64,000 bases of DNA from Chloroflexota bacterium (GCA_034428595.1 DAOUHO010000110.1:112-64111); one strand, 5' to 3'. Positions 15,189 to 60,511 are shown, counted from the first letter of the stretch. The notes: generated by a model from the sequence alone, not told the origin. Numbers and translations: made by a program.

Positions 15189-15215
15189 GTCATTCCGGCG
15201 GAGGCCGGAATCCAG
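15189..15215. repeat. REP-like hairpin repeat copy (gtcattccggcggaggccggaatccag)
   Basis: 27 nt after desaturase stop; stem TCCGGCG/CGCCGGA. Confidence 0.7.
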
Positions 15216-15386
15216 ACCAGCCCAACCTGGAGCGCGCGAGGTTTCCCCTGGACATCCTTCGCTCGACCGGGGTGTACCAGGGGCGCCATTCGTGGGAATG
15301 CCGGATTCACAAATGGCCGCTTCGGCGCCTCTTGCCCGTTGGCTGGCTTCAGCTAACACTATGAGAACGGCGATCGGAGGGGCATC

Positions 15387-16295
15387 GTGCGCGTAGCGCT
15401 CACCGGCGGCAGCGGCCTCATCGGCGGCGCGGTCACCGCCGCGCTCGAAGCCGAGGGGCATGACGTCATCCATCTCGTCCGTCCGCCCCGTCGTGCCGCC
15501 GAGGGCCAGGTTGCCTGGGACCCGATCGCCGGCACCATCGACGCGGGGGGTCTCGAAGGCCTCGACGCCGTCGTGCACCTGGCCGGTGAGCCGACCACCG
15601 CCTGGCGTTGGACGGCTGCCAAGAAGCGCCGCATTTACGCCAGCCGGGTGGACGGAACGCGGCTGCTGGCGGAAACGCTGGCCGTGCTGCAGTTTCGCCC
15701 CCGCGTCTTCGTGTCCTATTCCGCGGTGGGGTACTACGGTGACCGTGGCGACGAAGTCCTGCGCGAGGACAGCTCGCCTGGGTCGAGTTTCCTGGCGAAA
15801 GTCGCGACCGATTGGGAGGCCGCCGCTCATCCCGCCGCCGGCCGCGAAATCCGGGTGGTGCATCTGCGCGGCGCGCCCGTGGTGGCGGGCCACTCCGCGT
15901 TTCTGACGCGCCAGGCGCCTGCCTTCAAGCTCGGGCTGGGCGGCCCATTGGGCAGCGGCCGCCAATGGTGGCCCTGGGTGGCGCTGGAGGACGTGGTGGG
16001 CGTCGTGCGGCACGTGCTGGCGCGCGACGACCTGCGGGGCCCCATAAACGTCGTGGCCCCGGAGCAGTGCACCAATCTCAAGTTCGCGCGCACCCTGGGT
16101 CGTGTGCTTGGCCGACCGGCCCTGCTGCCGATGCCGTCGCCGGTCCTGCGCGCAATGATGGGTGAGATCGCCGACGAGATGCTGCTGGCCAGCCAACGAG
16201 TCGAGCCCGCTCGACTCATCGCCTCCGGCTACCACTTCCACTTCCCGATGTTGGAGCACGCGCTGCGGCACGCGCTCGGCTGTCCGTCCGCCTGA
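15387..16295 (+). CDS. TIGR01777-family NAD-dependent epimerase/dehydratase (YfcH-like, DUF1731 C-terminus)
   Basis: 302 aa; GTG start 6 nt after GGAGG; N-terminal TGGSGLIGG Rossmann motif. Confidence 0.8.
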   Translation: MRVALTGGSGLIGGAVTAALEAEGHDVIHLVRPPRRAAEGQVAWDPIAGTIDAGGLEGLDAVVHLAGEPTTAWRWTAAKKRRIYASRVDGTRLLAETLAVLQFRPRVFVSYSAVGYYGDRGDEVLREDSSPGSSFLAKVATDWEAAAHPAAGREIRVVHLRGAPVVAGHSAFLTRQAPAFKLGLGGPLGSGRQWWPWVALEDVVGVVRHVLARDDLRGPINVVAPEQCTNLKFARTLGRVLGRPALLPMPSPVLRAMMGEIADEMLLASQRVEPARLIASGYHFHFPMLEHALRHALGCPSA

Positions 16296-16352
16296 GGCTC
16301 GACCGTCGCGCGACGGTGCGCGAGACTGCCCGCGTCCAGCGCTGCTCGACCG

Positions 16353-17480
16353 TTGAGGGAATCCATGCTCAGCACTGAGGGATGTCGGGCGCGCACGCGC
16401 CGCTTGCTCGAACGCGTCGACGCCGACGTGGAGACGCTGGTCGTCACGCGGCCCGAGCACGTCTTCTACCTGGCCAACTACATGCCGTCGCCCAGCGACA
16501 TTCACCATCGCGCGCCGCAATACCTGGTCATCCAACGCGGCGGACCCACGACGCTCATTCTCGATGGGTTCGCCAAGCTCGACGGCGAGCCGGCCGTTGA
16601 TGAGGTCGTCCATGGTCCCTGGCGCGTGGCGGAGCCCGACGAGACCCGCGCCCACTGCACGGCCAGCGCCGCCATCGACCTGATTGGAAAGCTCGGGAGC
16701 CAGATCATCGGCGTCGAGCGTGCCGCGGTGCCCGCCGCCGTCGCCGCCGCGGCGCCCGAGGTTCGAGACATCGAGCCTCACCTCGGCCGCATGCGCCAGG
16801 TCAAGGACCCGGACGAGCTGGAGCTGATCCGCGCCGCCGTGCGGGTCGGCGAGGCCATGCACGCGGCTTCGTGGGAATGTCTGGCGCCCGGCATGCGCGA
16901 GATTGATGCCTACGCCGCCATCGTGACCGCCGGCCTGGAAGTGGCGGAAGGGCCGTTCGTGATGATGTGCGAGTTCATCTCCGGCCCCCGGGTTGTGCCG
17001 CGCCGCGGTGACCCCGGCCCGCGTGTCATGGAGGCCGGTGACAACGTCGTCATGGACCTGTTCCCCTACGTCAACGGCTACCGCTGCGACCTCACCAACA
17101 CCATCACCCTCGGCGGGCGGCCCACGCCGGAGCAGCAGCACGCCTTCGACGCGGTGCACGAGGCGTTGACGGCCTCCGAGGCCATGATTCGGCCCGGCGT
17201 TCGCGCACAGGACATCTACGCCGTGCAGGACGCCGTGCTGCGGCGCGCCAACTCGGACTGGGGACTTCCGGGCCACGCCGGACACTCGCTCGGACTGGAG
17301 CATCCCGAGGCGCCCGATTTCGTGCCCGGCGTCGAAGGCGAGGTGCTGCAGGGCATGGTCATCGCCCTAGAGCCCGGCGCCTACGGCATGCCCTTCCACG
17401 GCGTGCGCCTGGAGCACAACTACCTCGTCACCGCCGACGGTTTGGAGCGGCTCTCCAACCACCGCCTGGGGCTGGTGTAG
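16353..17480 (+). CDS. M24 family metallopeptidase (Xaa-Pro aminopeptidase/creatinase-like)
   Basis: 375 aa; pita-bread fold metal ligands incl. HAGHSLGLEHPE. Confidence 0.85.
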   Translation: MRESMLSTEGCRARTRRLLERVDADVETLVVTRPEHVFYLANYMPSPSDIHHRAPQYLVIQRGGPTTLILDGFAKLDGEPAVDEVVHGPWRVAEPDETRAHCTASAAIDLIGKLGSQIIGVERAAVPAAVAAAAPEVRDIEPHLGRMRQVKDPDELELIRAAVRVGEAMHAASWECLAPGMREIDAYAAIVTAGLEVAEGPFVMMCEFISGPRVVPRRGDPGPRVMEAGDNVVMDLFPYVNGYRCDLTNTITLGGRPTPEQQHAFDAVHEALTASEAMIRPGVRAQDIYAVQDAVLRRANSDWGLPGHAGHSLGLEHPEAPDFVPGVEGEVLQGMVIALEPGAYGMPFHGVRLEHNYLVTADGLERLSNHRLGLV

Positions 17481-17519
17481 CAGAGTCCGAGTAGAGCAGA
17501 GTCTGCGCCTCGTACGAGC

Positions 17520-17957
17520 CTAGAGGTGGACGATTTCGAGGTCGCCCCAATGCTGCTGGAGATACTCCGCCACCAGGCGGCGGTGGCAGTGATCCGGCGT
17601 GTCCTCGCTGCATAGCAAGCATCCGTCAGCGAGTGCCTGTTTCACGGTCGACATTTCCTCTATGCGCCGATCGCCCATCAGCGCAAGGAATTCGCCCTCA
17701 TAGGTTGCCCAATCGCGATGCTCCTTGCGGTACGCGTTGAGCATCTCCTTCGTAGGCGCCAGATCGGGCACGTGGACATAATCCATCCGACAGATCTTGT
17801 CGAGAAAGTACATAAGGTCATCTCGCTTGGCGAAGCCCGCCAGCTGCGAGACGTTGTTCAGCCGCACGTCCACGACTCGCTTCGCGCCCGAATCGAGCAA
17901 GCGCCCAAAGAAATCGGCAGCGGAGGTCTTTGTGAAGCCGATGGTGTAGAGCCTCAA
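17520..17957 (-). CDS. DUF488 family protein (short paralog)
   Basis: 145 aa; MRLYTIGFTK...VVDVR core matches DUF488 (YeaO-like); 4-nt overlap with upstream DUF488 gene. Confidence 0.75.
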   Translation of the reverse strand: MRLYTIGFTKTSAADFFGRLLDSGAKRVVDVRLNNVSQLAGFAKRDDLMYFLDKICRMDYVHVPDLAPTKEMLNAYRKEHRDWATYEGEFLALMGDRRIEEMSTVKQALADGCLLCSEDTPDHCHRRLVAEYLQQHWGDLEIVHL

Positions 17958-18628
17958 AAGTCATTCTCCCAATCGTCGCCACTTGCGATCGGTACCGCGC
18001 CGACATGCGCCACCTTCGCCGCCTGACGGGACAGCGCATCGGCGACCAGATCATCGCGGGAGCGTGGCAGACCACCGTTGCCGCGATCCGCCGTCGCGAA
18101 CATGTCCATCTGCTCGACAGGGGAGAGCTTGTGCAGGCGCAGCAGCCGGTCCATGGCGGCGGCGTGCTCTTCGAGGCTGCCGTCAGCGTGAATGTGCGCC
18201 ACGGCAACACCTCGGTCCACGAGAGCCCTGGCGACCAGCAGGGTGCGGTGACAGTCAAGCGGTTCCTTTTCGGCGCACATCAATGCGATGCGACGCTCAT
18301 CGGCCCCGTGAATGACCTGCCGGATTCCGTCATCGAATGTGTCGCTCTGCGCCAGCCGGTCGTATAGAACGCGTCCGTCGGCGTCATAGCACGACCGGTC
18401 GCTTGGCCGGCCGCCCAACTCTCCACCCATGAAGTCATAGCCGATTCCCACGTTTTCCAGCGCTTCGGACAAGACTCGATGGCTGAAATGGGGTGTGTAG
18501 CGACTGTACGGCGACGACCGAACGTCCGCGACCTCATCGATGCCATGAGCCCGCAGCAACTCCAGAAACGCTTCGAGCGAATGGTTGGAGTGCCCGACGG
18601 TAAACACGGGATGCTGCGTCACACTCAC
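17954..18628 (-). CDS. DUF488 family protein (long paralog)
   Basis: 224 aa; DUF488 signature FTVGHSNHSLEAFLELLRAHGIDEVADVRSSPYSR. Confidence 0.8.
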   Translation of the reverse strand: MSVTQHPVFTVGHSNHSLEAFLELLRAHGIDEVADVRSSPYSRYTPHFSHRVLSEALENVGIGYDFMGGELGGRPSDRSCYDADGRVLYDRLAQSDTFDDGIRQVIHGADERRIALMCAEKEPLDCHRTLLVARALVDRGVAVAHIHADGSLEEHAAAMDRLLRLHKLSPVEQMDMFATADRGNGGLPRSRDDLVADALSRQAAKVAHVGAVPIASGDDWENDF

Positions 18629-18640
18629 GGCACTTCCGCG

Positions 18641-19363
18641 TCAGGGTCTGATGATGGCGGCAATGAGTTTATACGCAAAGCCCTCGAACGGCTCGCCCAG
18701 GCTAATGGTCAGAAACCTATCCTCGTCTACCACGAATGAGCCAGCCCCCAACTCCGCAGCCGCCTTCTCGCTGACGGGGTCGGTTATGCGGAGAGAATAG
18801 TCGTTACCGTGATACTTGAACTTTCCGCGTAACCGATAAGTATTGCTTGCGATGTTTTGCGATATAAGTACTTCTAGTCTATCGATCTTGATAAGGCAAA
18901 GTGAGCTTCTAAGAGAAAAGGCAAGATCCTCTGGTACTCGGTCGTTGAATCCGCTACGGCTGCTATGTCCGTTGTTCCAGAGTGTCTTGGCTTGGTCGGC
19001 CCACTGCGGCAAGTCATCCCAGCGTATACGACCAACTTTGCCCCAGCGGCGTCCTGGATCGAGTAGCCAGTTTTCCTGCTGATACCCGTGAGGGTGTGCG
19101 CGAGAGACTGGCACATTGATGACATCGAGAACGCACGGCTCGCTGCCGTCCATCAGCCGTCGTTCGGCTGCCGAGACTTCCTCGTGCTCTCGATTGCTCA
19201 CTGGCCGCACCCACCCTCCCGGTTGCCTGTTGTCGAGGAGTTGCTTGCCGGCGATACAGCGTCCCCCCAGCTTACGTGAGTTTGCCAGACACACGATGCG
19301 CTTCACGGTACTGGATCGTGCAGAAAACCTGTACGCTCGAAATCGTTCGAACAAGCGCATCAC
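18641..19363 (-). CDS. hypothetical protein, unclassifiable (conserved-looking VCLANSRKLGGRCIAGK segment)
   Basis: 240-aa ORF 12 nt upstream of the DUF488 pair, same strand; markedly lower GC (~45%) and A/T-ending codons; no recognisable motif. Confidence 0.5.
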   Translation of the reverse strand: MMRLFERFRAYRFSARSSTVKRIVCLANSRKLGGRCIAGKQLLDNRQPGGWVRPVSNREHEEVSAAERRLMDGSEPCVLDVINVPVSRAHPHGYQQENWLLDPGRRWGKVGRIRWDDLPQWADQAKTLWNNGHSSRSGFNDRVPEDLAFSLRSSLCLIKIDRLEVLISQNIASNTYRLRGKFKYHGNDYSLRITDPVSEKAAAELGAGSFVVDEDRFLTISLGEPFEGFAYKLIAAIIRP

Positions 19364-19553
19364 GAGCAGTCGTACGAAACACGTCTGAGCGCCAAATGAT
19401 AGCGTTTACACGCTCATGGCCGACGATCCCTGGCAACGATCAATCTCGTGGCCTGCTCGAAGATGTGACGTTCTGGCCGATGATTCGCCTGCCACACAGT
19501 CCCAGATGCGCACAGTCCGCTGGCATAGTCGGAGAGTTGACCACGTTGCGCCC

Positions 19554-20453
19554 ATGCGAGAAGGTCAACGCACCACCAATGAATCTGTGACGGAGGCGGC
19601 GATGGCCGTTGAGGCGGCGACGCGGCAGATTGACGATCGAGACTGGTCGGTGCTGACCCTCGGCGAGCGCATCCGGCAGATCGAGGTCGAGGGCTACCTG
19701 GTCCTACCCGACCTGCTCACGCCCGAGCGGGTGGCGGAGCTCAAGGAGGTCACTGCGACCTGGGAAACCGTCGCCACCGACTACAGCAAGAGCCAGCAGG
19801 TTCGTCCCGGCGTGGAGTTTGCCGGCGGGCTCATCAACGATCTGATCGCCAACCCGCCGACGCTGGAATTCCTGCGCGCGCTCTGCGGACCGGACATCAT
19901 CCTGATGTCGGTGGCCTATGCGCGCTCCGAGCCCGGCCATCCCGGCATCAGCCTGCACACCGACGGCCAGCCCTACGGATCCAAAATCTTCGGCTACGGC
20001 GGCAGCGCGCCCTTCATGGTCCGGGTGCTCTACTACCTCGACGATCTGACGCCCGAGGTCTCGCCGTTTCGCGTCGTGCCGCGGTCCCATCTCGCCTTCC
20101 ACGCCGACGCAAATCCCTATCTCCGCTTCGAGGGCCACCCCGAAGAGGTCATGGTGCCCGCCAAGGCGGGATCTGCCGTGCTGATCAATCACCGCGTGTT
20201 CCACGGCAACTTTCCCAATACGGGCGATCGGCCGCGGGAGATGCTTGCCATCGCCTACCGGCCCGCCTGGGCGGGACCGCAGGGCGACGTGCCGGCCTGG
20301 GACCCCGACGCCGTGGCGGCGCTGCCCGACCACGTGCGCCCGCTGTTCGCCGATCGCAACACCCGTCACTGGCTTCCCGAGGGCGGCAACAAGCCGGCGG
20401 GCATGCAGTCCGAGGCGCCGGGAATGAATCCCAGCCGCTGGGAGATGGCTTAG
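19554..20453 (+). CDS. phytanoyl-CoA dioxygenase (PhyH) family Fe(II)/2-oxoglutarate oxygenase
   Basis: PhyH motifs HTDGQ ... H(RVF)HGNFPN; ORF open from 19416, ATG at 19554 (or 19602) chosen as start. Confidence 0.75.
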   Translation: MREGQRTTNESVTEAAMAVEAATRQIDDRDWSVLTLGERIRQIEVEGYLVLPDLLTPERVAELKEVTATWETVATDYSKSQQVRPGVEFAGGLINDLIANPPTLEFLRALCGPDIILMSVAYARSEPGHPGISLHTDGQPYGSKIFGYGGSAPFMVRVLYYLDDLTPEVSPFRVVPRSHLAFHADANPYLRFEGHPEEVMVPAKAGSAVLINHRVFHGNFPNTGDRPREMLAIAYRPAWAGPQGDVPAWDPDAVAALPDHVRPLFADRNTRHWLPEGGNKPAGMQSEAPGMNPSRWEMA

Positions 20454-20463
20454 CGGTTCGGCG

Positions 20464-21543
20464 CTAGCCCGAGTCGGGCGGCTCGTTGCCCCATTCGTAG
20501 GAAAGCACGCGCACGTTGCGTTCCTGCAGCGGCAGCGCCACGCGGGCGCCGTCCTGGAGGTGCGACTCGTGGAACGCGAGGCCGAGCTCGGTGACCAGGC
20601 GCGCGCGGTCCAGCCCGCAGATCGAGGGCCGGCCGTCGCGAATCGCGGCCACGAGGTCGCCGACAGCCACGCGGCCCGCATCAGCCAGACCGCCTCGGTT
20701 GGGCAATTCCAGCGGCTCGGCCGCCAGGCCTTCGCGGCCGAGGAAGCCGAAGCCCTCGCGCACGCGCCACACCAGGGCGTCGTTGGCATCGTTGGTCACC
20801 AGCAGCCGGCCTTCGGTCCCCAGGACTTCGTAGGCGTGACTCGGCGCGCCCTCGCGCATCACGTGCGCGAACTTGTTCTCGCCCCAGCCGAACATTCCGC
20901 GGCCCGGCGGATCCAGCCGGTCCCGCGCGTCCGGCGGCAGACTGGAGACGTCGTTGACATATCCAGCGGCCCAGGTTGGCTCTGGATGCCCCGCCAGCGT
21001 GAGCATCACGTCCAGCCAGTGGCAGCCGTGGTTGAGCAACTGCGCCAGCCCGAACCCGAACACCGCCTGGACCTCGCCGATCAGCCCGTCCTCCAGCAGC
21101 TTGGCGAGGTGCACGTAGGGCGGCCACCAGGCGCGGTCGAGGCCATAGACCACGCCCACGCCGTTGGCCTCGCACGCGTGGACGATGCGATCGACCTCGT
21201 CCATCGTCGTGCAGAGCGGCTTCTCGAAGAATATCCCTCGCACTCCCGCCGCCGCGGCCTGCTCGCATTGATCGGCGTGCATGGTTTGCCGCGTGGCGAT
21301 GCACACGATGTCGGGATCGACCGCTTCCAGCATGCGCGGGTAGTCGTCGAAATCGGGGATGTGGTCGCCCCAGACCGCCTTGAACGCCCGGCGCGTTTCG
21401 TCGCCGTAGTCGAACACGCCCACAATCTCGGTCTCGGGCACCGCGTCAAACGCCGTCGCCCAGTTGTGGCTCTGGCCCACGCGGTCGAGCATGCGATGGC
21501 AGCCGGAAATCGCCACCCGCAGCGGGCGATCCGAGGTACTCAT
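20464..21543 (-). CDS. Gfo/Idh/MocA family oxidoreductase
   Basis: 359 aa from ATG at 21543 (MSTSDRPLRVAISG...); N-terminal Rossmann fold; the upstream in-frame extension to 22041 is Arg/Gly-rich junk. Confidence 0.85.
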   Translation of the reverse strand: MSTSDRPLRVAISGCHRMLDRVGQSHNWATAFDAVPETEIVGVFDYGDETRRAFKAVWGDHIPDFDDYPRMLEAVDPDIVCIATRQTMHADQCEQAAAAGVRGIFFEKPLCTTMDEVDRIVHACEANGVGVVYGLDRAWWPPYVHLAKLLEDGLIGEVQAVFGFGLAQLLNHGCHWLDVMLTLAGHPEPTWAAGYVNDVSSLPPDARDRLDPPGRGMFGWGENKFAHVMREGAPSHAYEVLGTEGRLLVTNDANDALVWRVREGFGFLGREGLAAEPLELPNRGGLADAGRVAVGDLVAAIRDGRPSICGLDRARLVTELGLAFHESHLQDGARVALPLQERNVRVLSYEWGNEPPDSG

Positions 21544-21554
21544 CTGGGAGCCGC

Positions 21555-22445: not shown

Positions 22446-22498
22446 GGGGGGATCGTAGCAGCCGGTTGCAGCCGCGAGGTCGGGGGTCTCTTGAATCC

Positions 22499-22526
22499 GT
22501 CATTCCCGCGAAGGCGGGAGTCCATC
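22499..22526. repeat. REP-like hairpin repeat copy (gtcattcccgcgaaggcgggagtcca)
   Basis: between divergent GNAT and pentapeptide genes. Confidence 0.7.
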
Positions 22527-22605
22527 CTTAAGTCGTCAACCGACGAGTCGAGGGCGTCCGCGGGCGCTGGGACCGCATGCGGCACCCGGATTTGATTGGA
22601 GCCCA

Positions 22606-33291: not shown

Positions 33292-33378
33292 GCCGCAGCT
33301 CTACATCCGCGCGCCGAGGCTTGGCTGCCGAGCCCAGCGGTGGGAGCATTGGGGCACGGGCGGGTGGAGGTCGGACCC

Positions 33379-35122
33379 ATGGCGCGTGACGGCAAGGTCA
33401 ATGCCGGGAAGCTGAGCGACCTCGCGCCCGGCCGCTGCCACAGCCTGCGCGTCAACGGGCGCACGCTGGTGCTGGTCCGCGACGGCGACGCCGTGCACGC
33501 GCTCGACAATCGCTGCCCCCACATGGGATTTCCGCTCGACCGCGGCAGCGTGGACGACGGAATCCTGACCTGCCACTGGCACCACGCGCGCTTCGACGTG
33601 ACCACCGGCGGCACGTTCGATCTTTGGGCCGACGATGCGCCGGCATTCCCGACCGAGGTTATCGACGGCGAAGTCTGGATCGACCTGCGGGTCGATCGCG
33701 ACGAGCTGGCGCATCACCGTCGCCGTCTGCGCGACGGCTTGGAGCGGAACCTGTCCCTCGTCATCGCCAAGGCGGTGATTGGCCTGCTGGAAGCCGGCGC
33801 GGACGCGCGCGAGCCGTTCCGAATCGGGCTGGATTTCGGCGTGCGCTACCTGGCGGAAGGCTGGGGTCAGGGGCTCACGGTGCTCACCTGCATGATGAAC
33901 TTGCTGCCCCGGTTGCCGCGCGACCAGCACGCCCGAGCGCTGTTTCATGGGCTGTCGAACGTAGCGAGCGACTGCGCCGGAGCCGCGCCGCGCTTCCCTG
34001 CCGGACCGCTGCCCGACGCCCCCGCCGATCCCGCCGCGCTCAAGCGCTTGGTTCCGGCGCTCCGTCGAGGTTCGCGACGCCACGGGCGCGGAGCGCTGCC
34101 TGCTGACCGCCGTGCGGGCGGGCTTCGAGCCGGAGGCCCTGGCCGACATGCTCTTCGCCGCCGCGACCGACCATCGCTACCTGTCCAGCGGACACGTGCT
34201 CGACTTCACCAACAAGGCGCTGGAGGCGCTGGACATCGCGGGTTGGGACCTCGCCGGGGGCGTGCTCGCGTCGCTCGCGCGGGGCTACGCCAACGCGCAG
34301 CGCATGGAGGAGTCCAACGCCTGGCGGCGGCCGCACGACCTGGTGGTGATCCTCGAGGCGGCGTTCCGCGAGATTCCAGACGTATCCGCCCGGGTCGATC
34401 CAACCCCGTGGCCTGAACGCGCGGCGCTTGTCGACACCGTGCTGGGCGACGATCCCAACGCCATCGCCGACTCGCTCACCGCCGCGCTGCGCTCAGGCGT
34501 TGGCCCGGTGCAACTGGCGGAGGCCGTGGTTCAAGCGGCGGTCACTCGTGTTGCTCGGTTTCACGTCAGCAACGAGTTCGGCGACTGGGACCGCGCGCTG
34601 CACACGCTGTCGTTTGCCAACGCGGTTCGCTGCGGCTTGATACGGTCGCCCTCCCGCGAGCTGGTGCGCGGCGTCTACGACGCGGCCATGAGCGTCTACC
34701 TCGACCGCTTCCTCAACGTGCCGCCCGCCCGTGTACCGAGCCTCAATGGCCAGTCGCCGGCTCCGGGACCCGACCTGCTGCGGCAGCTTCCGGACATCCT
34801 GGACCGGCGGCAGCAGGTCGATGACGCCGCGCGGCTGGTGATCGAGTACCGGGCCGGCAATGGACACGACGACGATCTGCGGGCAGGTCTGGGCTGCGCG
34901 CTGATGCGCGAGGACCGCAACTTCCACACCATCCAGTCGATCGAGGCGGCGATGCGGCAGTTCGACCGAACGACGAAATCCGAAGACGCCACGCTGGCGC
35001 TGGTGGCCGGCGCGCGCTATCTCGCGGCGCACGCGCCAACGGTGCGCGCGCAGGGCCAAACGTTCCAGATCGCCCAGCGCCTCCACCGCGGCGAAGCGCT
35101 CTACGAGGAATCGCCGGCCTGA
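33379..35122 (+). pseudogene. Rieske [2Fe-2S] domain protein fused to a large alpha-helical C-terminal domain, interrupted by an apparent +1 frameshift near 34066-34072
   Basis: Frame 1 (33379-~34068) gives a Rieske domain (CPHMGFPL...CHWHHARF) plus sensible sequence to ...ALKRLVPAL; it then becomes Arg/Gly junk until 34416; frame 2 is sensible from ~34067 (VEVRDATGAERCLL...) to the stop at 35122; no start candidate in frame 2 before GTG 34112. Confidence 0.5.
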
Positions 35123-35130
35123 CACTCTCT

Positions 35131-35214
35131 GTCATTCCGAGCCGCAGGCGAGGAATCAAAGGGGCAGGGAACAAGCACCGCGTCCTTAGATTCCTCACGT
35201 TCGTTCGGAATGAC
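35131..35214. repeat. inverted pair of degenerate REP-like copies (gtcattccgagccgcaggcgaggaatc ... gattcctcacgttcgttcggaatgac)
   Basis: two copies in opposite orientation 31 nt apart, between convergent genes. Confidence 0.6.
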
Positions 35215-35240
35215 ACGTCAAGCCCGCCCCAACGAACCCC

Positions 35241-41218: not shown

Positions 41219-41392
41219 CTAGGGCAACCCTATGTCGGCGGTATTCGTCGGATTGTGAACAAATGTACGAAGCCTGACCGATCCGGTCTTCCGCGCGACG
41301 CCGCGACATCGGAGAATCGGCCCATGAGGGACGGGTTCCACGCTCGCACGAAACTGCCGTGGCGCGCGGCGCTGCGCCAACTGCTGGCCTTC

Positions 41393-41419
41393 GTCATTCC
41401 GGCGAAAGCCGGAATCCAG
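41393..41419. repeat. REP-like hairpin repeat copy (gtcattccggcgaaagccggaatccag)
   Basis: between MMPL start and Ldh_2 end. Confidence 0.7.
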
Positions 41420-41639
41420 TCCGCGTTTCGCCGACTCCTGAAGCTCCTCGTTGACCCCATTGGACCCCGAGGCGTCGGTCCCATTCCTTCCGGCCCCAGG
41501 CCCCACGTCCCGGTGCGGGGCGCCTGGGAGTCCGCCTGCGGTTGGGAGGCGCGCTGGAACGTGTGGCTGGCCAGCCCCTCCAGCCCTATGTGGCGCGGCG
41601 ACGGAGAGCAGCCCCACCGCCGCTAATCCTGGCGAAACG

Positions 41640-42686: not shown

Positions 42687-42785
42687 GGCTTCGTCCTCCG
42701 CTCCCGCGCTCGCTACGACCGCCTGCTACCGATGGTGCGCGATGCAATGCCCGGCCGCCACCGGGTAGTCGGTCATTGTGGGGCC

Positions 42786-42810
42786 GTCATTCCCGCGGAG
42801 GCGGGAATCC
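42786..42810. repeat. REP-like hairpin repeat copy (gtcattcccgcggaggcgggaatcc)
   Basis: between Ldh_2 start and SBP end. Confidence 0.7.
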
Positions 42811-42969
42811 ACGCTCCACCTCACCAGGGGACGCACGGGATTCTCGCAGGCATCCTTCGCCTGACTAGGTCTTTCGAAAGTCTCCGGCGTGGATGCGCCA
42901 GGCCGACACTTCAGCAATTGGCGCGACGAGGCCTCGATATGACGACCTTCGTGAATTTCGCGGCCGCGG

Positions 42970-45117: not shown

Positions 45118-45176
45118 TGAGATTCCTTCCGTGCTTGCGCGTTCAAACCCTTACGCAGCGTCAGCCGGAAATACCC

Positions 45177-46376: not shown

Positions 46377-46444
46377 GCAGCTCCTTGGCGAGAGTCGCCG
46401 GATTTGAGGTGGTGGTTCGGGCGCGGCTTAGACGTGTCCGCCGA

Positions 46445-47287
46445 TCAGTCGAGCCCCAGGAGTTCCAGGGTATTGCGGTGGATGATTCCCTCGATCACGT
46501 CGTCCGGGATGCGCGGCAGGTTCGTTCCCTCCACCTGCTCGTTGAGGCGGCGCATCTTCCCCATGCCCTCCTCGGGCGTCCAGAACGGGAAGTCCGAACC
46601 GAAGAGCAGCTTGTCGGCCACGCCCCACTCGACCATCAGCACCAGGGCTTCCCAGGCCGAGTAGGGGCGTACCCAGCCCGCGCCCGAGACGTCGGCGTAG
46701 ACGTTGGCGTGCTTGCGGATGACGACCGCGCAATCGCGCTGCCACGGATGCGCCATGTGCGCGATGACGATCCTGAGGTCCGGGAATGCCTGCGCGACCT
46801 CGTCGAACAGCAGCGGATGACTGTATTTGAGGATGGCCCGCGGATTGGGCTGTGTGCCCATGTGCGACAGGATCGGCAGACCCAGGCGCTGGGCCTTCTC
46901 GTAAAGGGCGTAGTACACCGGGTCTGCCGGGTTGAAGTGCGACAGCGTCGGATAGATCTTGATCCCGCGCAGGCCGAGGTCGACGCTGCGGTCGATCTCG
47001 TCGAGGTAGCCGTCCTCGGTCGGGTCGATGCCCATGAATCCGATGATCCTGTCGGGGTCCCTCGCCGCCCACTCGGCGGTGAAGTCGTTGGGACTGAGGG
47101 CGCCGGCCGCCCGGGCGCGCACCCCAAAGACAATGGATTTGTCCACGACGCGCATGGCCTCGGCGTAGTCTTCGAATAGCAGCGGCTGCATCGGCGGATA
47201 CCCGGCCCGCTCGTCGGCGCGGCGCGAGGCCTCGCTCACGTGATCCGGCTGCAGGCAGTGCGTGTGAATGTCGATGATCACGGGCAA
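46445..47287 (-). CDS. amidohydrolase-2 family hydrolase (sugar-lactonase/LigI-like), paralog B
   Basis: 280 aa; same motifs as paralog A; nucleotide identity ~80% over the whole gene. Confidence 0.85.
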   Translation of the reverse strand: MPVIIDIHTHCLQPDHVSEASRRADERAGYPPMQPLLFEDYAEAMRVVDKSIVFGVRARAAGALSPNDFTAEWAARDPDRIIGFMGIDPTEDGYLDEIDRSVDLGLRGIKIYPTLSHFNPADPVYYALYEKAQRLGLPILSHMGTQPNPRAILKYSHPLLFDEVAQAFPDLRIVIAHMAHPWQRDCAVVIRKHANVYADVSGAGWVRPYSAWEALVLMVEWGVADKLLFGSDFPFWTPEEGMGKMRRLNEQVEGTNLPRIPDDVIEGIIHRNTLELLGLD

Positions 47288-47333
47288 ACCCTCCGTGCGT
47301 GTGTGTGCGGATTTTCGGAAAACGTCAGTAGTC

Positions 47334-48188
47334 TCATCCCTTCACCGCGCCGGCGGTGATTCCCCGCACGAGCCCCCGCTGCAAGATCAGCACGATGATG
47401 AAGATCGGCACCGCCGACAGCGTCGAGGCCGACATCGCCACCGCCCAGTCGGTCGCCGTCTGCTCCGCCGTGAACGTCGTGCTCACGCCGATCGGCAGCG
47501 TCTTGACGTCCGAGGTGGTGGTGAAAACCAGGGCGAAGAGGAACTCGTTCCAGGCCAGGATGAATGCAAACAGCGCAGTTGCCACGATGCCGGGAACCGA
47601 GAGCGGCAGAATCACGCGAAAGAGCGCTCCCAGGCGGCTCGCGCCGTCCACCATGGCCGCTTCCTCCAGGTCGCGCGGCAGCGACTGAAAGTAGCTGCGC
47701 AGCAGCCACAGACAGAACGGCACCGAAAACGTCGTATAGGTGATGATCAGCGCGATCAGATTGTTGGCGAGATTCAGCGTCACGACGATTTTGAAGAGCG
47801 GAATCAGCAGCAGCACCGACGGCACCGTATAGGTCAGCAGCGCGAACCGGCCGATGGACTCGCTGCCGGGGAAGCGCAGCCTGGCGAGGCTATAGGCGCC
47901 GAGCGTCGCGACCACGATGGATACGACCGTGGTCCCCGTCGCGACCATCAGGCTGTTGAGCGCGAAACGCAGGAAGACCGGGTCGAACGCCACCACGGCC
48001 ATGTGGTCCCCGACGAATGCGCGGGGGAGCAGGATTTCCCCAAGGTCTCGCCGAAGAAAGGTCTCCACGGGGCTGATCGCCCCCACGACCATGAAGTAGA
48101 TCGGGAACACGGCGAGAAACGAAAGCACCAGGCCGAGCAAGGCGCGCGGACGATGGTTCGCCGTCAGGATTTTGGCGACGCGCTTCAC
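47334..48188 (-). CDS. carbohydrate ABC transporter permease (MalG-like)
   Basis: 284 aa, 6 TM; EAA loop (LEEAAMVDGASRLGALFRVILP). Confidence 0.9.
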   Translation of the reverse strand: MKRVAKILTANHRPRALLGLVLSFLAVFPIYFMVVGAISPVETFLRRDLGEILLPRAFVGDHMAVVAFDPVFLRFALNSLMVATGTTVVSIVVATLGAYSLARLRFPGSESIGRFALLTYTVPSVLLLIPLFKIVVTLNLANNLIALIITYTTFSVPFCLWLLRSYFQSLPRDLEEAAMVDGASRLGALFRVILPLSVPGIVATALFAFILAWNEFLFALVFTTTSDVKTLPIGVSTTFTAEQTATDWAVAMSASTLSAVPIFIIVLILQRGLVRGITAGAVKG

Positions 48189-49099
48189 CGTTGCGTCTCT
48201 TCCTCGACCCAGCCGACGCGCAGCATGATCAATGACAGCAGCACCACCAGCACCACCATCACGGCGGCAATGGCGGAGCTCATGCCGACGTTGTACTCCC
48301 GGAAGCCTGCGGTGAATACCTGCATCGGCAGCGTCAGGGTCGCCCGCGCCGGTCCCCCGCCGGTGAGCAGGTACACCATGTCAAAGGAGTTGAAGGTCCA
48401 GATGGTGCGCAGCACCAGCACGATGACCAGGACGTAGCGCAGCGCCGGCACCGTGATGTTCCAGAACATCTGCCACGCCGACGCCCCGTCGACCTTCGCG
48501 GCCTCGTACCAGTCCTCGGGGATCGTCTGCAGGCCCGCCAGCAGTACCAGGAAGGTCCACGGGAGACCCTTCCAAGTGTAGACGGCGATCAGGGAGATCA
48601 TCGCCGTGACGCCTTCGGACAGCCAGGCGATTGGCTCGTCGATGATGTGCAGCAGCTGCAGGAACGCGTTGATGGGCCCGAATTGCGGATGGAGCAGCCA
48701 GACCCACACGAAGGCCGTCACGAACGACGGAATCACCCACGGCAGGATGTTGAGCGTGCGGAAGAGCCCGCGGCCGCGATAGCTGGCGTTCACGGCGAGG
48801 GCGATGATCATGCCGATGATCACCTCGCCGGCCACGGCGCCGGCCGTTAGCACCACACTGTTGACGACGACCTTCCAGAAGGCGCCATCGGACACCAACC
48901 GCACGAAATTGTCGAGCCCCACAAACTCGGCGGGATCGTTGGGCCGCAGCAGGCTCTCTTTGAAGAACGCCAGCCACATCGTCGAGATCATGGGGTAGAG
49001 CACGACGGCGGCAATGAGCGCGACGGTAGGCAACAGCAGCCCTATACCCAGCAGCCGCTCGGAATTGCGCAGGCTGAGGCCTCGAATACCCCACCTCAC
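48185..49099 (-). CDS. carbohydrate ABC transporter permease (MalF-like)
   Basis: 304 aa, 6 TM; EAA loop (YEAAKVDGASAWQMFWNITVP); 4-nt overlap with downstream permease gene. Confidence 0.9.
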   Translation of the reverse strand: MRWGIRGLSLRNSERLLGIGLLLPTVALIAAVVLYPMISTMWLAFFKESLLRPNDPAEFVGLDNFVRLVSDGAFWKVVVNSVVLTAGAVAGEVIIGMIIALAVNASYRGRGLFRTLNILPWVIPSFVTAFVWVWLLHPQFGPINAFLQLLHIIDEPIAWLSEGVTAMISLIAVYTWKGLPWTFLVLLAGLQTIPEDWYEAAKVDGASAWQMFWNITVPALRYVLVIVLVLRTIWTFNSFDMVYLLTGGGPARATLTLPMQVFTAGFREYNVGMSSAIAAVMVVLVVLLSLIMLRVGWVEEETQR

Positions 49100-49166
49100 C
49101 GTTGTATGCAGGGGGCGGGCCCGCAGCTAGCGCTGACGGCCCGCCCCCGAAACTGCACTTGATCGA

Positions 49167-50657
49167 CTAGTTTTCGTCGATCACCTTTTGGACTTCGGCC
49201 TCGGCCCACGCGGCGGCGTCCTCGGGGCTCTCACCGTCGAACACCATGATGAACATGTCCTTCACGATGTTCCGGGCGGTGACGGTCCCGAGAAGCTCCG
49301 AGCCCTTGGACCCGTACTTCGATCCGCCGACCCACGCCATCTGCGAGGCGTCCACGCCCGCGCGGATGATGTGCGCCACCGGTGCGATGCGCGGGTGGCC
49401 CCAATACTCGTCGCTGTTCTGCACGTCCACGTGCGTCGGCGCCCAGCCGATCACCGTGCTCTGGAACCACTCCTGGTAGTTCTCGCGAGCGAAGAGCTCG
49501 GCGAAGAACTCCGCCATGCGGTCGGGGTAGTCCGTCTGCGTGGTGATGTTGAGGATATTCATCCCCGCCAACCCGGCGCCCGTGCCCGCCACGCTCGGCT
49601 GCGCGACGGCGGAAACCTGTTCCAGCATTTCCGGCTTGTCGGCCAGGAAGGTGCCGGAGAACGAGGTCGACGAGACCATGTGCGCCGTGGCGCCGCGAAT
49701 GAACTCCGTCCGACCGTCGCCTTCGTGGCGGGCTGCCGCGCCCGGCGCCGAAACGTCGTCCAGGGCCTTCGCCAGCTTGAGCGCCGCGATGGTGCCCGGG
49801 CTGTTGACGGAGTTGTTGCCGTTCTCGTCGAAGACGTACGCGTCATGCGCCGGCATCAAGCTCCACGCCATCTTGGGATGGGCGTCCAGCAAGTAGGTGA
49901 AGTAGCCGTAGATGTCCGGCGGGTTGTTCAGTGCCTGGGCGTTCGCCAGGATGTTGTCCCACGATGTCGGGTCCGGCAGACCGTGCTGCGCGTAGAGGTC
50001 GCTGCGGTAGTACAGGATGTGGGGCCACAGGAACTGCGGCACGCCGTAGTTCACCCCGTCCACCGCGGTCGCGTTGAGGTCGTTCTCGCCGAAGATGTCG
50101 CGCCCCATCAGGTCCAGCGCGTCCGTCGCCGGCGCGACGATCTCTTGCCCAGACCAGCTCCAGGTCGCATCCGGCTGGCTCCAGACCATGTCCGGCAGCG
50201 TGCCGGCGGCTTTGGCCGCCAGGATCTTCGGCTCCGTCTCGCGGAACGGCACCACTTCGCGGTTCATTCGCACGTCCGCTGAAATGCCGGCGCGGGCGAA
50301 CCAGGCGTCCTGCGCCGCCACGCCCAGCGGCCGCGTCTCAAAGTCCCAGAACGAGATGTCGAGGATTTCGCGCTCGACCATGACTTCCTCGACGACCCGC
50401 TGGGTAATGACCTGCTGGACCGGAACTTCCTTGATGACTTCCTGCGTGACGATCTTCTCGACCGACACTTCCTTGATGACTTCCTTGGTGACCACCGTCT
50501 CGACCGGGACCTCCTTGATGACTTCCTTGGTGACGACTTCCGTTTCGCCGCAGGCGCCCAGGATCATCGCGACGGTCGCGGTTCCACCGGCTGCCGCGGC
50601 CAGGCGGAACAATCGCCGTCGACTCAGCGCCCCGCTTCGACTAAAGGTCTCTTTCAT
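49167..50657 (-). CDS. carbohydrate ABC transporter substrate-binding lipoprotein (SBP family 1) with N-terminal 14-aa tandem-repeat linker
   Basis: 496 aa from ATG 50657; Tat-like RRRLF plus lipobox LGAC; four VVTKEVIKEVPVE-type repeats before the SBP_bac_1 domain. Confidence 0.85.
   Translation of the reverse strand: MKETFSRSGALSRRRLFRLAAAAGGTATVAMILGACGETEVVTKEVIKEVPVETVVTKEVIKEVSVEKIVTQEVIKEVPVQQVITQRVVEEVMVEREILDISFWDFETRPLGVAAQDAWFARAGISADVRMNREVVPFRETEPKILAAKAAGTLPDMVWSQPDATWSWSGQEIVAPATDALDLMGRDIFGENDLNATAVDGVNYGVPQFLWPHILYYRSDLYAQHGLPDPTSWDNILANAQALNNPPDIYGYFTYLLDAHPKMAWSLMPAHDAYVFDENGNNSVNSPGTIAALKLAKALDDVSAPGAAARHEGDGRTEFIRGATAHMVSSTSFSGTFLADKPEMLEQVSAVAQPSVAGTGAGLAGMNILNITTQTDYPDRMAEFFAELFARENYQEWFQSTVIGWAPTHVDVQNSDEYWGHPRIAPVAHIIRAGVDASQMAWVGGSKYGSKGSELLGTVTARNIVKDMFIMVFDGESPEDAAAWAEAEVQKVIDEN
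50364..50546 (-). repeat. coding tandem repeat (4 x ~42 nt) giving (T/K)(V/I)VT(K/Q)EVIKEV(P/S)VE units in the SBP linker
   Basis: nucleotide-level direct repeats cttgatgacttcct(t/g)g(g/c)tgac... visible on the plus strand. Confidence 0.7.
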
Positions 50658-51001
50658 CCTTTGCTCCTCTGCTCTCGCGGGGCGCATGAGGTCGCCGCCG
50701 CACAACTAGTCAACACAAACACAACGTTGGCTGGGAGAATATCGCCTGGGCGCGTTCGGGAGCCGCGGGGCGCATTGAAGAAGGTGCCCTTCCGGCACCG
50801 ACCGGCATTGGCCTGGTTACAGCCACCGCGCAATCGAATTCGCCTGCGCCCGTTTACGGTAATTTGGCGATGGCGCTGTATATCACGAAGCTGGTTGACG
50901 CTACAACCGCGGCGGAATCTGAGTAGCCCCGCATGACGAGTGCGCCGCCCGCGCTCCGCATGCCACACTGCGCCCATAGGACCGTGGACCGAGGTGCGGC
51001 G

Positions 51002-51859
51002 ATGGACCCGAGTTGCTTGGAATTCGCACTTACCGACTCCGAGGCGGCGACCTTCGAGCGCGATGGATTTCTGATCGTCGAGGACGCGCTCAGCGACGCC
51101 AAGGTCGCCGAGCTAAGCGAGCTGCTCGACCGCCTGGTCGCGGGTGAGGGCATCACGCACACGCCACACGGCAGCCGCGCCGGTCGCGTCAACGCCATCG
51201 ACGTCGCCGGGCTGGACCCCGCCTTGATCGACCTCGTGGATCACCCGCGCACGCTGCCCAAGGTCTGGGGAATCCTGGGCTGGAACATCCACCTCTATCA
51301 CAGCCACTACATCATGGCCGGGCAGATTGACCGGCCGGCCAACGGGGACGCGGAGGCCACGCTCGGCTGGCACCAGGACTCCGGTCGCATCAACCAGGAC
51401 GTCGAAACCAATCCCCGACCGCGCCTGTCACTCAAGGTGGCCTACTTCCTCAGCGACGCCAGCGAGCCCGACCGCGGCAACTTTTGGGTGCTGCCCGGCA
51501 GCCACCTGCGGAATGAAATTGAGATTCCCGCGTCCGGTCGCGGCCAGCCGGACGGCGCCATGCCCGTGTGCGTGCCGCCCGGCACGTCGGTGCTCTTCGA
51601 CCGACGGCTCTGGCACGCCGGATCGCCCAACTACGCGCCCATCGTTCGCAAGGCGCTGTTCTACGGCTATTCCCACCGCTGGGTGCACGCCCGCGATGAG
51701 GTGACGATTCCGCCCGACCTATGGGAGGCGGCCGATCCCATCCGACGGCAACTGCTGGGTTACGCCACCGGCCAGCACGGCCGCACGTCACCAACAGACG
51801 AGGATGTGCCGCTGAGAGGGTGGCTGGAGCAGCATCAGCCCGCCGTGGCGGCTCGCTAG
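51002..51859 (+). CDS. phytanoyl-CoA dioxygenase (PhyH) family oxygenase
   Basis: 286 aa from ATG 51002; HxD (WHQDSG) ... H (LWHAGSPN) iron ligands. Confidence 0.8.
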   Translation: MDPSCLEFALTDSEAATFERDGFLIVEDALSDAKVAELSELLDRLVAGEGITHTPHGSRAGRVNAIDVAGLDPALIDLVDHPRTLPKVWGILGWNIHLYHSHYIMAGQIDRPANGDAEATLGWHQDSGRINQDVETNPRPRLSLKVAYFLSDASEPDRGNFWVLPGSHLRNEIEIPASGRGQPDGAMPVCVPPGTSVLFDRRLWHAGSPNYAPIVRKALFYGYSHRWVHARDEVTIPPDLWEAADPIRRQLLGYATGQHGRTSPTDEDVPLRGWLEQHQPAVAAR

Positions 51860-51915
51860 GAAAACTCCGCACTCGATCTCTTTCCCCTCGAAGAAGACCT
51901 TTGCGTAACCCCTTC

Positions 51916-52109
51916 GTCATTCCCGCGAAGCATGTCCCCGCGACGGCGGGGAGCGGGAATCTAGCGGACGCCCAACCTGTTAACCCATGCGTAGGGGCGA
52001 CGCATGCGTCGCCCCTACCTCTATCTTGAAGGGTCTCCGACGGCGGGAATCTAGCGGCCGCTCAACCTGTTAGCCCACGCGCAGGGGCGGTTCGCGAACC
52101 GCCCTTGGC
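51916..52109. repeat. composite: REP-like hairpin element followed by two tandem ~75-nt units, each ending in a perfect GC-rich hairpin
   Basis: unit 1 ~51940-52019 ends in hairpin gtaggggcgacgcATGcgtcgcccctac (51991-52018); unit 2 ~52039-52109 ends in ggggcggttcgcgaaccgccc (52084-52104); shared core cgacggcggg(gagcgg)gaatctagcgg.cgc.caacctgtta.ccca.gcg.agggg; sits between convergent PhyH genes. Confidence 0.7.
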
Positions 52110-52154
52110 TGGTCTTGCGCGTGTCTCGTCAGCCAGCGGACAGGGCGTTGCCGC

Positions 52155-53150
52155 CTACGCGCAGAGCGGGTGGTTGATATCCCAGCGCAGACCGGTGGTC
52201 TCCGGCGGATGGGCCACGAGTCGCTCGTGCGCCTCCAGCCATTGCCGCCGCCATTCGCGGTGGTCGCGCAGCTCGGATTCAGGATTCGAGCGGCTGCGGG
52301 CGATGAACCCCGGCAGATAGCCGCGGCCCGAGGGCTCGTCCGGGTGCTGATAGCGCAGGTCCAGGCTCATGCGCACGCCGTTGCCCAGGTTCGGCATCGC
52401 GCCGTGCATCAGGTGGCGGGAGAACACGATCACCGATCCGGCGCGCACCGGCAGCGGCTGCGTGCGTTCCTTGGACATGATGCCGTCGGGAAGATGGACG
52501 CCGCTCGAAGGGTTGGGACAGTGCTGCGCCAGGCCCTGGCGATGGCTGCCCGGAGCGATCTTCAAGCAGCCGTCGTCCGCCATCGCGTCGCTCAGGGCCA
52601 CCCACGCGGTGATCATCTCGGTGTCGTCGGCCTCGCGTGACTGCACCGCGTGGTCCTGATGCCACGGCGTCGCGCGCCCCAGGGCATCGTCCTGCGCCAG
52701 GAACCGCTCGGGAACCTTGAGTCGCGCATGCTGAATCGGACAGGAATAGATCTCGGGTCCGACAAACGGCTCGACCACGTCCAGCAGCCGCGGGTGGCGC
52801 AGCAGGTCGAACGCGGGCTTGCCTAGGTAGGGGGCCCGGTCCGCCGTGGCGACCGTGGTCGGCCGGATCGAGGGATCGAACGGCGACGGGTCGATCTCGC
52901 CAGCGTGCTCGGCGAGGTAGATCAGCTTCGCGTTCAGGTCGCCGTCGGGCGGCCACGCCGCCAGTTGCTCCGGCGTCAGTTCCTCGAGCGCCAGGCGGTT
53001 GGCGATGCGCTCGAAGTCCTCGAACAGCGGTGCGAAGTCGCGTTCGGGATCGAACACGTCCTCGAAGATCACCCAGCCCTCGTGCTCGAAGTGCGCCAGC
53101 TTCGCCGCCAGCTCCTCAGTGCTCTCGACCTGCGCCGTTTCTACGGCCAT
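52155..53150 (-). CDS. phytanoyl-CoA dioxygenase (PhyH) family oxygenase
   Basis: 331 aa; HxD (WHQDHA) ... H (LMHGAMPN). Confidence 0.75.
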   Translation of the reverse strand: MAVETAQVESTEELAAKLAHFEHEGWVIFEDVFDPERDFAPLFEDFERIANRLALEELTPEQLAAWPPDGDLNAKLIYLAEHAGEIDPSPFDPSIRPTTVATADRAPYLGKPAFDLLRHPRLLDVVEPFVGPEIYSCPIQHARLKVPERFLAQDDALGRATPWHQDHAVQSREADDTEMITAWVALSDAMADDGCLKIAPGSHRQGLAQHCPNPSSGVHLPDGIMSKERTQPLPVRAGSVIVFSRHLMHGAMPNLGNGVRMSLDLRYQHPDEPSGRGYLPGFIARSRSNPESELRDHREWRRQWLEAHERLVAHPPETTGLRWDINHPLCA

Positions 53151-53278
53151 GTGTCGTTCCCCAGGCTGCTACGGATCCCGCACGGATCAGGATACGCCAA
53201 CGCGCACAGCCGTCTTCGCTGCCCGCTATGCAAAGCCTCGGCGCAACTTCACGTCAAGTCCCCCGCCATCGCCGCCCG

Positions 53279-53305
53279 TCACTCCGGCGGAAGCCGGAGT
53301 CCAGG
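53279..53305. repeat. REP-like hairpin repeat copy, variant (gtcactccggcggaagccggagtccag)
   Basis: between PhyH start and chrA end. Confidence 0.65.
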
Positions 53306-60509: not shown

Positions 60510-60511
60510 TC

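Follow-up and report, generated by a model that had tools for sequence, protein, structure and literature searches.

We analysed 64,000 nucleotides of DNA from a Chloroflexota bacterium (GCA_034428595.1 DAOUHO010000110.1:112-64111), referred to below as the window, for a family of short hairpins that recur mostly between its genes. With high confidence, we identify these hairpins as Ssn-related motifs (SRMs), the elements known also as NTS or dRS3, as family 1 of the CGTC-tagged repetitive extragenic palindromes (REPs) and as RPE-6, and as orphan single-stranded DNA (ssDNA) sites of an Ssn-type nuclease. Two observations made here carry this identification, namely the match in sequence and the association of the hairpins with ssn genes. 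Recognition of the hairpin as ssDNA and a cut upstream of it were demonstrated elsewhere, and by analogy would apply to this organism. An earlier note, made from the sequence of the window, had described a REP-type dispersed hairpin family with a strong preference for intergenic DNA, and that description stands.

Structure and detection of the hairpins

The window was searched with the copy at 15188-15215 as the query, and 4 sites were found at up to 3 mismatches, against 0 in the 100 shuffles that served as the control. A listing of repeat families grouped 5 copies into one family (D8). Exactly 5 matches, at 46-49 bits (E about 1e-11 to 1e-12), were also returned by a covariance model that we built from 15 family members and ran unfiltered across the whole window. 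Everything else scored at most 13 bits, including two long and two variant copies that lie at about 12 bits, amid noise. Rfam, searched at its gathering thresholds, gave no family in the window.

All 5 canonical copies parse as an unpaired CGTC tag, a stem arm ATTCCSGC (or ACTCCGGC), a 4-nt loop GRAR, the complementary arm and an unpaired CCA tail. Written in full, the canonical string is CGTC-ATTCCSGC-GRAR-GSCGGAAT-CCA, with an 8-bp stem (ATTCCSGC/GSCGGAAT) and a DNA folding free energy (dG) of about -9 kcal/mol; a 26-nt query was used for the scan of viral contigs. The earlier note had read the elements as a 7-bp stem with a 3-nt loop. Because stem and loop were mis-parsed in this way, the consensus that it proposed, GTCAYTCCSGCGRARSCGSGGRRTCC, has 0 matches in the window, even at 3 mismatches.

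The elements themselves lie where that note had put them, to within 1-2 nt. In all, the window holds 5 canonical copies, 2 long copies in which a second 7-bp hairpin is nested in the loop (dG -10 to -16), a half copy of the 3' side and a dimer of a variant subfamily arranged heads-out (HH). What had been described for the long copy at 51915-51964, for the half copy at 52039-52060 and for the inverted variant pair (35130-35160, +, and 35186-35215, -) is confirmed; a long copy at 9455-9505 on the minus strand had been overlooked.

GTC directly 5' of the palindrome and C directly 3' of it are kept in the 5 canonical, 2 long and 2 variant copies, and the 5'-truncated copy at 52039 retains the 3' C only. 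The tag is CGTC or TGTC in every tagged copy; GTAG, the tag of REPs that go with REP-associated tyrosine transposases (RAYTs), was not encountered. Covariation in the stem is strong: of 144 viral-contig copies, 143 have complementary bases at the two S positions (Fisher P 9e-32), and the Y/R pair is likewise complementary in 143 (Fisher P 6e-10).

The hairpins match SRMs and flank ssn genes

CGTC REP family 1 was described by Di Nocera, De Gregorio and Rocco (2013, PMC3733652), who equated it with dRS3 of Neisseria and RPE-6 of Rickettsia. According to that survey, its members have a CGTC, TGTC or CCTC tag, an 8-bp stem with A-T pairs at positions 1 and 2, a 4-nt loop and a tail of approximately CCA; they are mainly intergenic, HH dimers are their commonest paired form, and loops of unusual length are mentioned. 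No flanked tyrosine transposase was found with CGTC repeats in any species surveyed. All 5 canonical copies of the window have the sequence features of this family, and its intergenic placement and HH dimers are seen here as well.

The NTS has the consensus CGTCATTCCCGCGMAVGCGGGAATCYRG and belongs to the broader class of SRMs (Chenal et al. 2025, Nat Commun, PMC11893778). Four of the 5 canonical copies lie within 3 substitutions of this consensus and three within 2. With the SRM search pattern, HGTCWYN(0-2)YYVSBRHN(0-5)WNVSBRGN(0-2)RNCYNB, which has a background of 0.7 matches per shuffled window, two of the 5 are matched.

The nuclease SsnA is a single-domain GIY-YIG protein of about 95 amino acids that has been studied in N. 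meningitidis, two other Neisseria species and Wolbachia (PMC11893778). It binds the folded hairpin as ssDNA, on the tagged strand only, and not the complement, double-stranded DNA or RNA, and its cut falls a few nucleotides to the 5' side of the tag. Binding needs the stem sequence and the C just 3' of it, and cleavage needs the GTC on the 5' side. Changes and extensions of the loop are tolerated in vitro with cleavage kept, an observation compatible with functional long forms. SsnA lowers transformation by NTS-bearing DNA in N. meningitidis, and in Neisseria it acts as a strand-specific restriction of ssDNA by which recombination of incoming DNA with the motif is reduced. At least one SRM lies near 71% of ssn homologues, and 42% have an SRM on both sides (all from PMC11893778).

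We found the same association starting from either partner. Among the genes enclosed by inverted pairs of the hairpin in the fetched loci, GIY-YIG genes of about 95 codons were the only family met more than once. In loci selected by the motif, 6 of 6 small GIY-YIG genes were flanked heads-out by the repeat, with about 17 nt between it and the start codon, 3-20 nt between the stop codon and the copy beyond it, and the same subtype on both sides, long forms included. We then picked loci by Ssn homology alone and sought a tagged hairpin within 150 nt. One was present at 26 of 37 viral loci, on both sides at 17 of them, and at 73 of the best 80 metagenome loci, where both sides were occupied in 47 of 72. 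The hairpins flanking the metagenome ssn genes include CGTCATTCCGGCGAAAGCCGGAATCCAG, identical to the window copy at 41392, and an ssn homologue flanked by SRM-like repeats is present in a Dehalococcoidia metagenome-assembled genome (MAG; L220). The Ssn proteins (cd10448 type) match PF01541 GIY-YIG; NCBIfam holds no model for the protein.

The window contains no ssn, RAYT or IS110 gene, and its copies are therefore orphan sites. They may be non-autonomous sites descended from units resembling insertion sequences (ISs) of the form SRM-ssn-SRM, and some would be old and evolving in place. If the bacterium encodes an Ssn, the copies would mark positions at which the top strand could be cut as ssDNA.

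Several points weigh against this identification. No ssn homologue was found in the 64-kb window (tblastn, Pfam) or in the syntenic DNA of relatives, about 100 kb in all, so that Ssn action in this organism is at present a prediction; of the genomes that have more than 200 SRMs, 81% carry ssn, and not all (PMC11893778). None of the best 80 metagenome loci with Ssn homologues came from the source sample. Three of the 5 canonical copies fail the published SRM pattern, solely because they have G at the first loop position (GGAG or GGAA). The stem reads CCGGC in three copies, as against CCCGC in Neisseria, and a change of stem sequence abolished the activity of the Neisseria enzyme (PMC11893778); a cognate enzyme variant would therefore be needed. 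The biological role of Ssn and SRMs has been established in Neisseria alone (PMC11893778). Finally, several copies persist at orthologous sites across lineages whose proteins are 84-92% identical, which argues that at least those copies have not been mobile recently.

Distribution beyond this genome

A motif scan of viral contigs with GTCAYTCCSGCGRARGCSGGARTCCA returned at least 120 stretches. The GC content of these loci ranges from 0.32 to 0.72, and they have nothing in common beyond one base on either side of the motif. The long form is likewise widespread: among the matches listed from genome collections are many Dehalococcoidia/Chloroflexota MAGs, Beta-, Gamma-, Delta- and Zetaproteobacteria, Acidimicrobiales, Nitrospirales, Cyanobacteria (Oscillatoriales), Acidobacteriota, Sedimentisphaerales and Saccharibacteria. 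Since the same motif occurs in unrelated viral contigs and in many phyla, the family is not specific to this genome, contrary to what the earlier note had supposed, and the hairpins are unsuited as a species-specific marker. The window does add a new host, a sponge-symbiont Chloroflexota lineage, to those of a known element. Its DNA derives from a metagenome of the sponge Petrosia ficiformis (JGI 3300002734, GCA_001753005.1), and the assignment of its organism to Chloroflexota follows the NCBI names given to proteins of the same 90% cluster.

The copies in the window

The first copy is the long form at 9455-9505 (-), which reads CGTC-ACTCCCGC-GAAG-CCTG-[TCCCCGCGCAGGCGCGGA]-GCGGGAAA-CCA and is 86% complementary to 51914-51964. 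In sense orientation and in a divergent promoter region, it precedes a MIP (aquaporin-family) gene, with 17 nt between the end of the copy and the start of the gene. The canonical copy at 15188-15215 (+), CGTCATTCCGGCGGAGGCCGGAATCCAG (48.8 bits; DNA hairpin dG -8.9), lies in sense 26 nt past the stop of an FA_desaturase gene. Between divergent GNAT and pentapeptide-repeat genes is the canonical copy at 22498-22525 (+), CGTCATTCCCGCGAAGGCGGGAGTCCAT, which has one T.G stem position (46.5 bits) and is one of those that match the published SRM pattern. Its 3' flank of about 75 nt is common to two copies in a relative (L122), and it is therefore part of a composite repeat.

Some SRMs form the 5' end of such a composite repeat, about 100 nt long and ending in GCGCNCAGATGTCAA (window 22498-22600; L122 14620-14722 and 18900-19024). 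The end CAGATGTC is found directly 5' of the long copy at 9455-9505 (window 9506-9520), a placement that suggests a mosaic or tandem arrangement like that of bacterial interspersed mosaic elements (BIMEs) or neisserial intergenic mosaic elements (NIMEs).

The variant dimer occupies 35130-35215, about 86 nt between convergent genes, and is an HH unit that resembles REP doublets forming hairpins (REPINs). Its left half (35130-35160, +) reads TGTC-ATTCCGAGCC..GGCGAGGAAT and its right half (35186-35215, -) TGTC-ATTCCGAAC..GTGAGGAAT; the halves are 25 nt apart, score 12-13 bits, and each has a conserved tandem G.A/A.G mismatch. The canonical copy at 41392-41419 (+), CGTCATTCCGGCGAAAGCCGGAATCCAG (49.3 bits), lies in frame within the open reading frame (ORF) 41324-41626 and is treated separately below. 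At 42785-42812 (+), the canonical copy CGTCATTCCCGCGGAGGCGGGAATCCAC (47.2 bits) sits between two minus-strand genes, at the start of Ldh_2 and the stop of Peripla_BP, and is antisense to both; its orthologues in the relatives L122 and L128 have the stem CCGGC/GCCGG instead.

The second long form, at 51915-51964 (+), reads CGTC-ATTCCCGC-GAAG-CATG-[TCCCCGCGACGGCGGGGA]-GCGGGAAT-CTA (DNA dG -16.5); it lies between convergent genes and starts 56 nt past a PhyH stop codon. The 5'-truncated copy at 52039-52060 (+), GACGGCGGGAATCTAG..., falls in direct-repeat family D18; about 35 nt of its 3' flank are the same as in 51915-51999, and it is therefore part of a 47-nt direct repeat (51953-51999 and 52043-52089). 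The last canonical copy, at 53277-53304 (+), CGTCACTCCGGCGGAAGCCGGAGTCCAG, has a compensated stem change from T-A to C-G (46.7 bits) and lies between two minus-strand genes, antisense to both.

Two further sequence features accompany the copies. A short motif, (G)CCCAAC(C/T)(T)G or TCGAACCTGG, repeatedly follows SRMs at a distance of 6-12 nt on the 3' side, both in the window (15216-15240, 51965-51985, 52061-52075, 53305-53320) and in other Chloroflexota MAGs (L161, L178, L195, L202, L208, L239, L241); none was seen at the viral-contig copies. A perfect GC-rich palindrome, GGGGCGACGCATGCGTCGCCCC, lies at 51990-52017 between the convergent PhyH genes, within the duplicated segment 51953-52089, and L122 and L128 have a similar hairpin, CCAGGCTGCGCGCAGCCTGG, in their counterparts of this intergenic region.

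Placement and orientation relative to genes

A gene map was drawn from GC content at third codon positions and checked by Pfam (50 predicted proteins) and by gene calls in syntenic contigs. Non-coding DNA makes up 9.5% of the window, and 9 of the 10 copies lie in it (P about 6e-9). The claim that the copies are always intergenic thus holds for these nine and fails for the tenth, at 41392-41419, which lies in frame within a conserved ORF of 100 amino acids.

We considered whether the hairpins act mainly as RNA, as 3'-end stabilisers, terminators or processing sites of upstream genes, and regard this as improbable. Four copies (15188, 35130, 35215 and 51915) do lie in sense 8-56 nt past a stop codon, the RNA hairpins would be stable, and many REPs have been argued to be transcribed (PMC3733652). 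Orientation toward the neighbouring genes is inconsistent across copies, however: those at 42785 and 53277 are antisense to both neighbours, that at 41392 is antisense to the gene whose stop precedes it, and those at 9455 and 22498 stand between divergent starts, in promoter regions. No T-run was seen on the 3' side of any copy examined, the flanks being GACCAG, TCCTTA, GTCCGC, CGCTCC and GGCCCG, so that the combination that marks an intrinsic (Rho-independent) terminator, a hairpin plus a T/U run oriented with the upstream gene, was not found. SsnA does not bind the RNA form of its site (PMC11893778), and the window's lack of an Rfam match points the same way. Lastly, the sequence is near-identical, unpaired tag and tail included, across genomes of 32-72% GC, which argues for a protein partner that reads the sequence and against a generic RNA stem. 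The role in termination or RNA stability that the earlier note proposed is accordingly not favoured.

The only dimer in the window has its tags outside (HH), and most copies are singletons. Eight of the 10 copies are on the plus strand, which has negative GC skew. A bias toward one replication strand was considered and rejected: orientation was unrelated to GC skew at 92 viral loci (51 vs 41, P 0.35), and it alternates in local clusters along one 3.3-Mb Dehalococcoidia contig.

A copy within a coding sequence

The ORF at 41324-41626 (+), which is divergent from an MMPL transporter gene, has no Pfam match and is called as a gene in related contigs. Within it, the SRM at 41392 is translated as VIPAKAGIQ. 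Five genomes have this copy at the orthologous site, near Ldh_2 genes whose proteins share 84-100% identity, and in all five the frame is open from a conserved ATG across the repeat to a conserved C-terminus. In one relative, the repeat unit is duplicated in frame within the ORF (54 nt), and in another the copy is of the long form and thereby longer by exactly 24 nt. The copy in L128 differs from that of the window at 6 positions, all of them third codon positions and synonymous, and a C.C mismatch in the stem is the result. In the conserved C-terminal block, variable sites number 3/1/16 at codon positions 1/2/3, and the third-position rate is 0.47, compared with 0.49 for Ldh_2. The open frame in five genomes, together with this codon-position pattern, shows that the ORF is a real coding sequence that absorbed the repeat.

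The Trp-rich C-terminus of the ORF product, VPVRGAWESACGWEARWNxWLASPSSPMWRGDGE, is almost invariant in five relatives. In one of the related contigs (L123), the ORF is still linked to MMPL although Ldh_2 has relocated.

Long forms and their inner modules

We parsed 131 long copies. The linker CG[AG]AG(AG)CCTG is conserved and the inner hairpin sits at a fixed point of the loop, whereas the inner hairpins themselves are of 54 different kinds, 42 of which fold from the first base; at least 8 phylum-level groups are represented. In a deltaproteobacterial MAG, long forms flank ssn genes. In two Dehalococcoidia MAGs (CBDHCU01 and CBDCTY01), the repeat is internal to two families resembling miniature inverted-repeat transposable elements (MITEs), and MITE copies that are otherwise identical differ in whether they have the short loop or one or the other of two inner modules. 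These MITE-like families, of about 140 and about 190 nt, are abundant in L129-L245 (e.g. L132, L167, L169), and their terminal inverted repeats are TTATACCAAT...TTGGTATAA and CCCAAATCCCCCACCT...AGGTGGTGGATCTGGG.

The long form may thus be a modular, pan-phylum subclass and no accident of a single locus. A speculative and rather unlikely proposal is that its inner module is inserted or exchanged by an Ssn-linked ssDNA cut-and-join reaction, or tunes specificity for distinct Ssn clades. Were Ssn-linked exchange of modules to be true, it would be the first footprint of strand transfer, and hence of transposition, by this nuclease family. The modularity of the inner hairpin is the one aspect of which we found no description in the main texts of PMC3733652 and PMC11893778.

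Dynamics in related genomes

SRM occupancy varies among syntenic contigs. The copy at the orthologous site between Ldh_2 and MMPL is present in different lineages with a compensated stem change, as a tandem duplication, as a nested long form or in a decaying version; its stem passes from CCGGC/GCCGG to CCCGC/GCGGG between relatives. For the canonical copies, a comparison of filled and empty sites was precluded by the intergenic DNA around L122 14696, which is too diverged to align. The only usable contrast between presence and absence is given by the variant dimer of about 86 nt, which occurs twice in L128 and is absent from L122.

One relative led us to weigh whether the hairpins are chiefly landing sites for IS110-family elements or phage integrases, comparable to the dRS3-type att sites of filamentous phages of Neisseria. 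In L124, an IS110-family transposase gene (18093-19034, -; DEDD_Tnp_IS110 and Transposase_20) lies downstream of Amidohydro_2, in the intergenic region that matches that of the window's variant dimer, and REPs are known as targets of ISs (PMC3733652). This is a single case in which the ends of the element are not fixed, the window has no IS110 gene, and exploitation by ISs accounts for neither the origin nor the conservation of the repeats; we consider a role chiefly as landing sites highly improbable. The junctions of the L124 element are near 18060 and 19200, and it abuts the stem of a variant SRM half-unit (…CTCGGAGT|ATCTGTG…) where the GAC of the tag would be expected.

Still less credible is a classical REP family mobilised by a RAYT, an IS200-like Y1 transposase, encoded elsewhere in the genome: the hairpins are short, GC-rich and intergenic and one HH dimer resembles a REPIN, but the tag is CGTC or TGTC and not the GTAG that defines RAYT-associated REPs, CGTC repeats were found to flank no tyrosine transposase in any species (PMC3733652), Pfam finds no Y1_Tnp domain in the predicted proteins of the window, and the 10 inverted pairs enclosing 0.3-3 kb in the fetched loci surround mostly ordinary genes and never a transposase. 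The earlier note had rightly found no RAYT gene in the window, as Pfam scans of the 50 predicted proteins bear out, yet its description of the hairpins as RAYT targets does not fit this tag; the gene that the motif flanks encodes the GIY-YIG ssDNA nuclease SsnA (PMC11893778), an association that we reproduced. A tRNA-like minihelix (stem plus CCA) was considered and set aside, as orientation is independent of transcription and a partner acting on DNA is known.

We therefore return to SRMs as the identity of the hairpins. In annotation, they are best labelled SRM/NTS-like (CGTC-REP) sites, with a GIY-YIG Ssn and not a RAYT as the expected partner. The GGAG loops, the subfamily with G.A mismatches, the nested long forms and the in-frame copy offer natural variants with which the specificity of Ssn could be probed.

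Other features of the window

A low-GC island at 3256-5602 (-), with GC about 0.61, encodes an Eco57I-like N6-adenine methyltransferase (495 amino acids) next to an ORF of 288 amino acids without a Pfam match, and is probably a horizontally acquired restriction-modification module. In a second low-GC stretch (17954-19363, -; GC about 0.61), DUF488 lies beside a DuOB (dual OB-fold) protein. A zinc ABC transporter operon of the znuA type is present as a tandem duplicate (58475-61402 and 61845-63996, 75-89% identity); both ZnuA proteins contain a repeat tract rich in His, Asp and Glu (59026-59210 and 62180-62406), and these tracts form the largest direct-repeat family of the window. At 33340-35122 (+), two ORFs overlap in different frames (33340-34416 and 34112-35122) where relatives have a single Rieske-domain gene of about 580 amino acids, which suggests a frameshifted pseudogene or an assembly error.

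Comparison with known systems

REP/REPIN-RAYT systems with GTAG-tagged REPs are reportedly the subject of work by Nunvar in 2010, by Bertels and Rainey in 2011 and by Ton-Hoang in 2012. The hairpins studied here resemble them in that a small nuclease gene lies between inverted hairpins, many orphan copies are dispersed through intergenic DNA, and the enzyme reads the hairpin as ssDNA, with its orientation set by a tag of four unpaired nucleotides at the base of the stem. They differ in that an HUH-Y1 fold and a GTAG tag are replaced here by GIY-YIG and CGTC, and in that Ssn is known as a nuclease for which transposition has not been demonstrated.

With CGTC REP family 1, the hairpins share the CGTC or TGTC tag, the 8-bp stem with its two A-T pairs, the 4-nt loop, the CCA, the HH dimers and the intergenic placement. 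The hosts surveyed in PMC3733652 were Proteobacteria, Chlorobi, Bacteroidetes, Spirochaetes and Thermotogae, and not Chloroflexi. That survey concluded that the repeats have no dedicated enzyme, a view superseded by the 2025 work on Ssn and by the counts of hairpins flanking ssn genes presented here.

The likeness to NTS and SRMs extends to a nearly identical sequence, to a hairpin with oriented, non-palindromic flanks in mostly intergenic DNA, to clustering around genes and to identical copies on both sides of ssn genes. The differences are that Chloroflexota, to which the sponge-associated host belongs, are not named in the main text of PMC11893778, that GGAG and GGAA loops and nested long forms fall outside the SRM search pattern, and that one copy is fixed in frame in a protein. 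For this last feature there is a parallel in the Rickettsia palindromic elements (RPEs), which occur as in-frame insertions within genes (Ogata et al. 2000, as cited by PMC3733652) and of which RPE-6 is CGTC-1 itself (PMC3733652). Like an RPE, the copy at 41392 is tolerated inside a conserved ORF and translated in its frame; unlike the RPE case, the host protein is a hypothetical one of 100 amino acids, and orthologues of its ORF show both an in-frame duplication of the element and an in-frame insertion in its loop.

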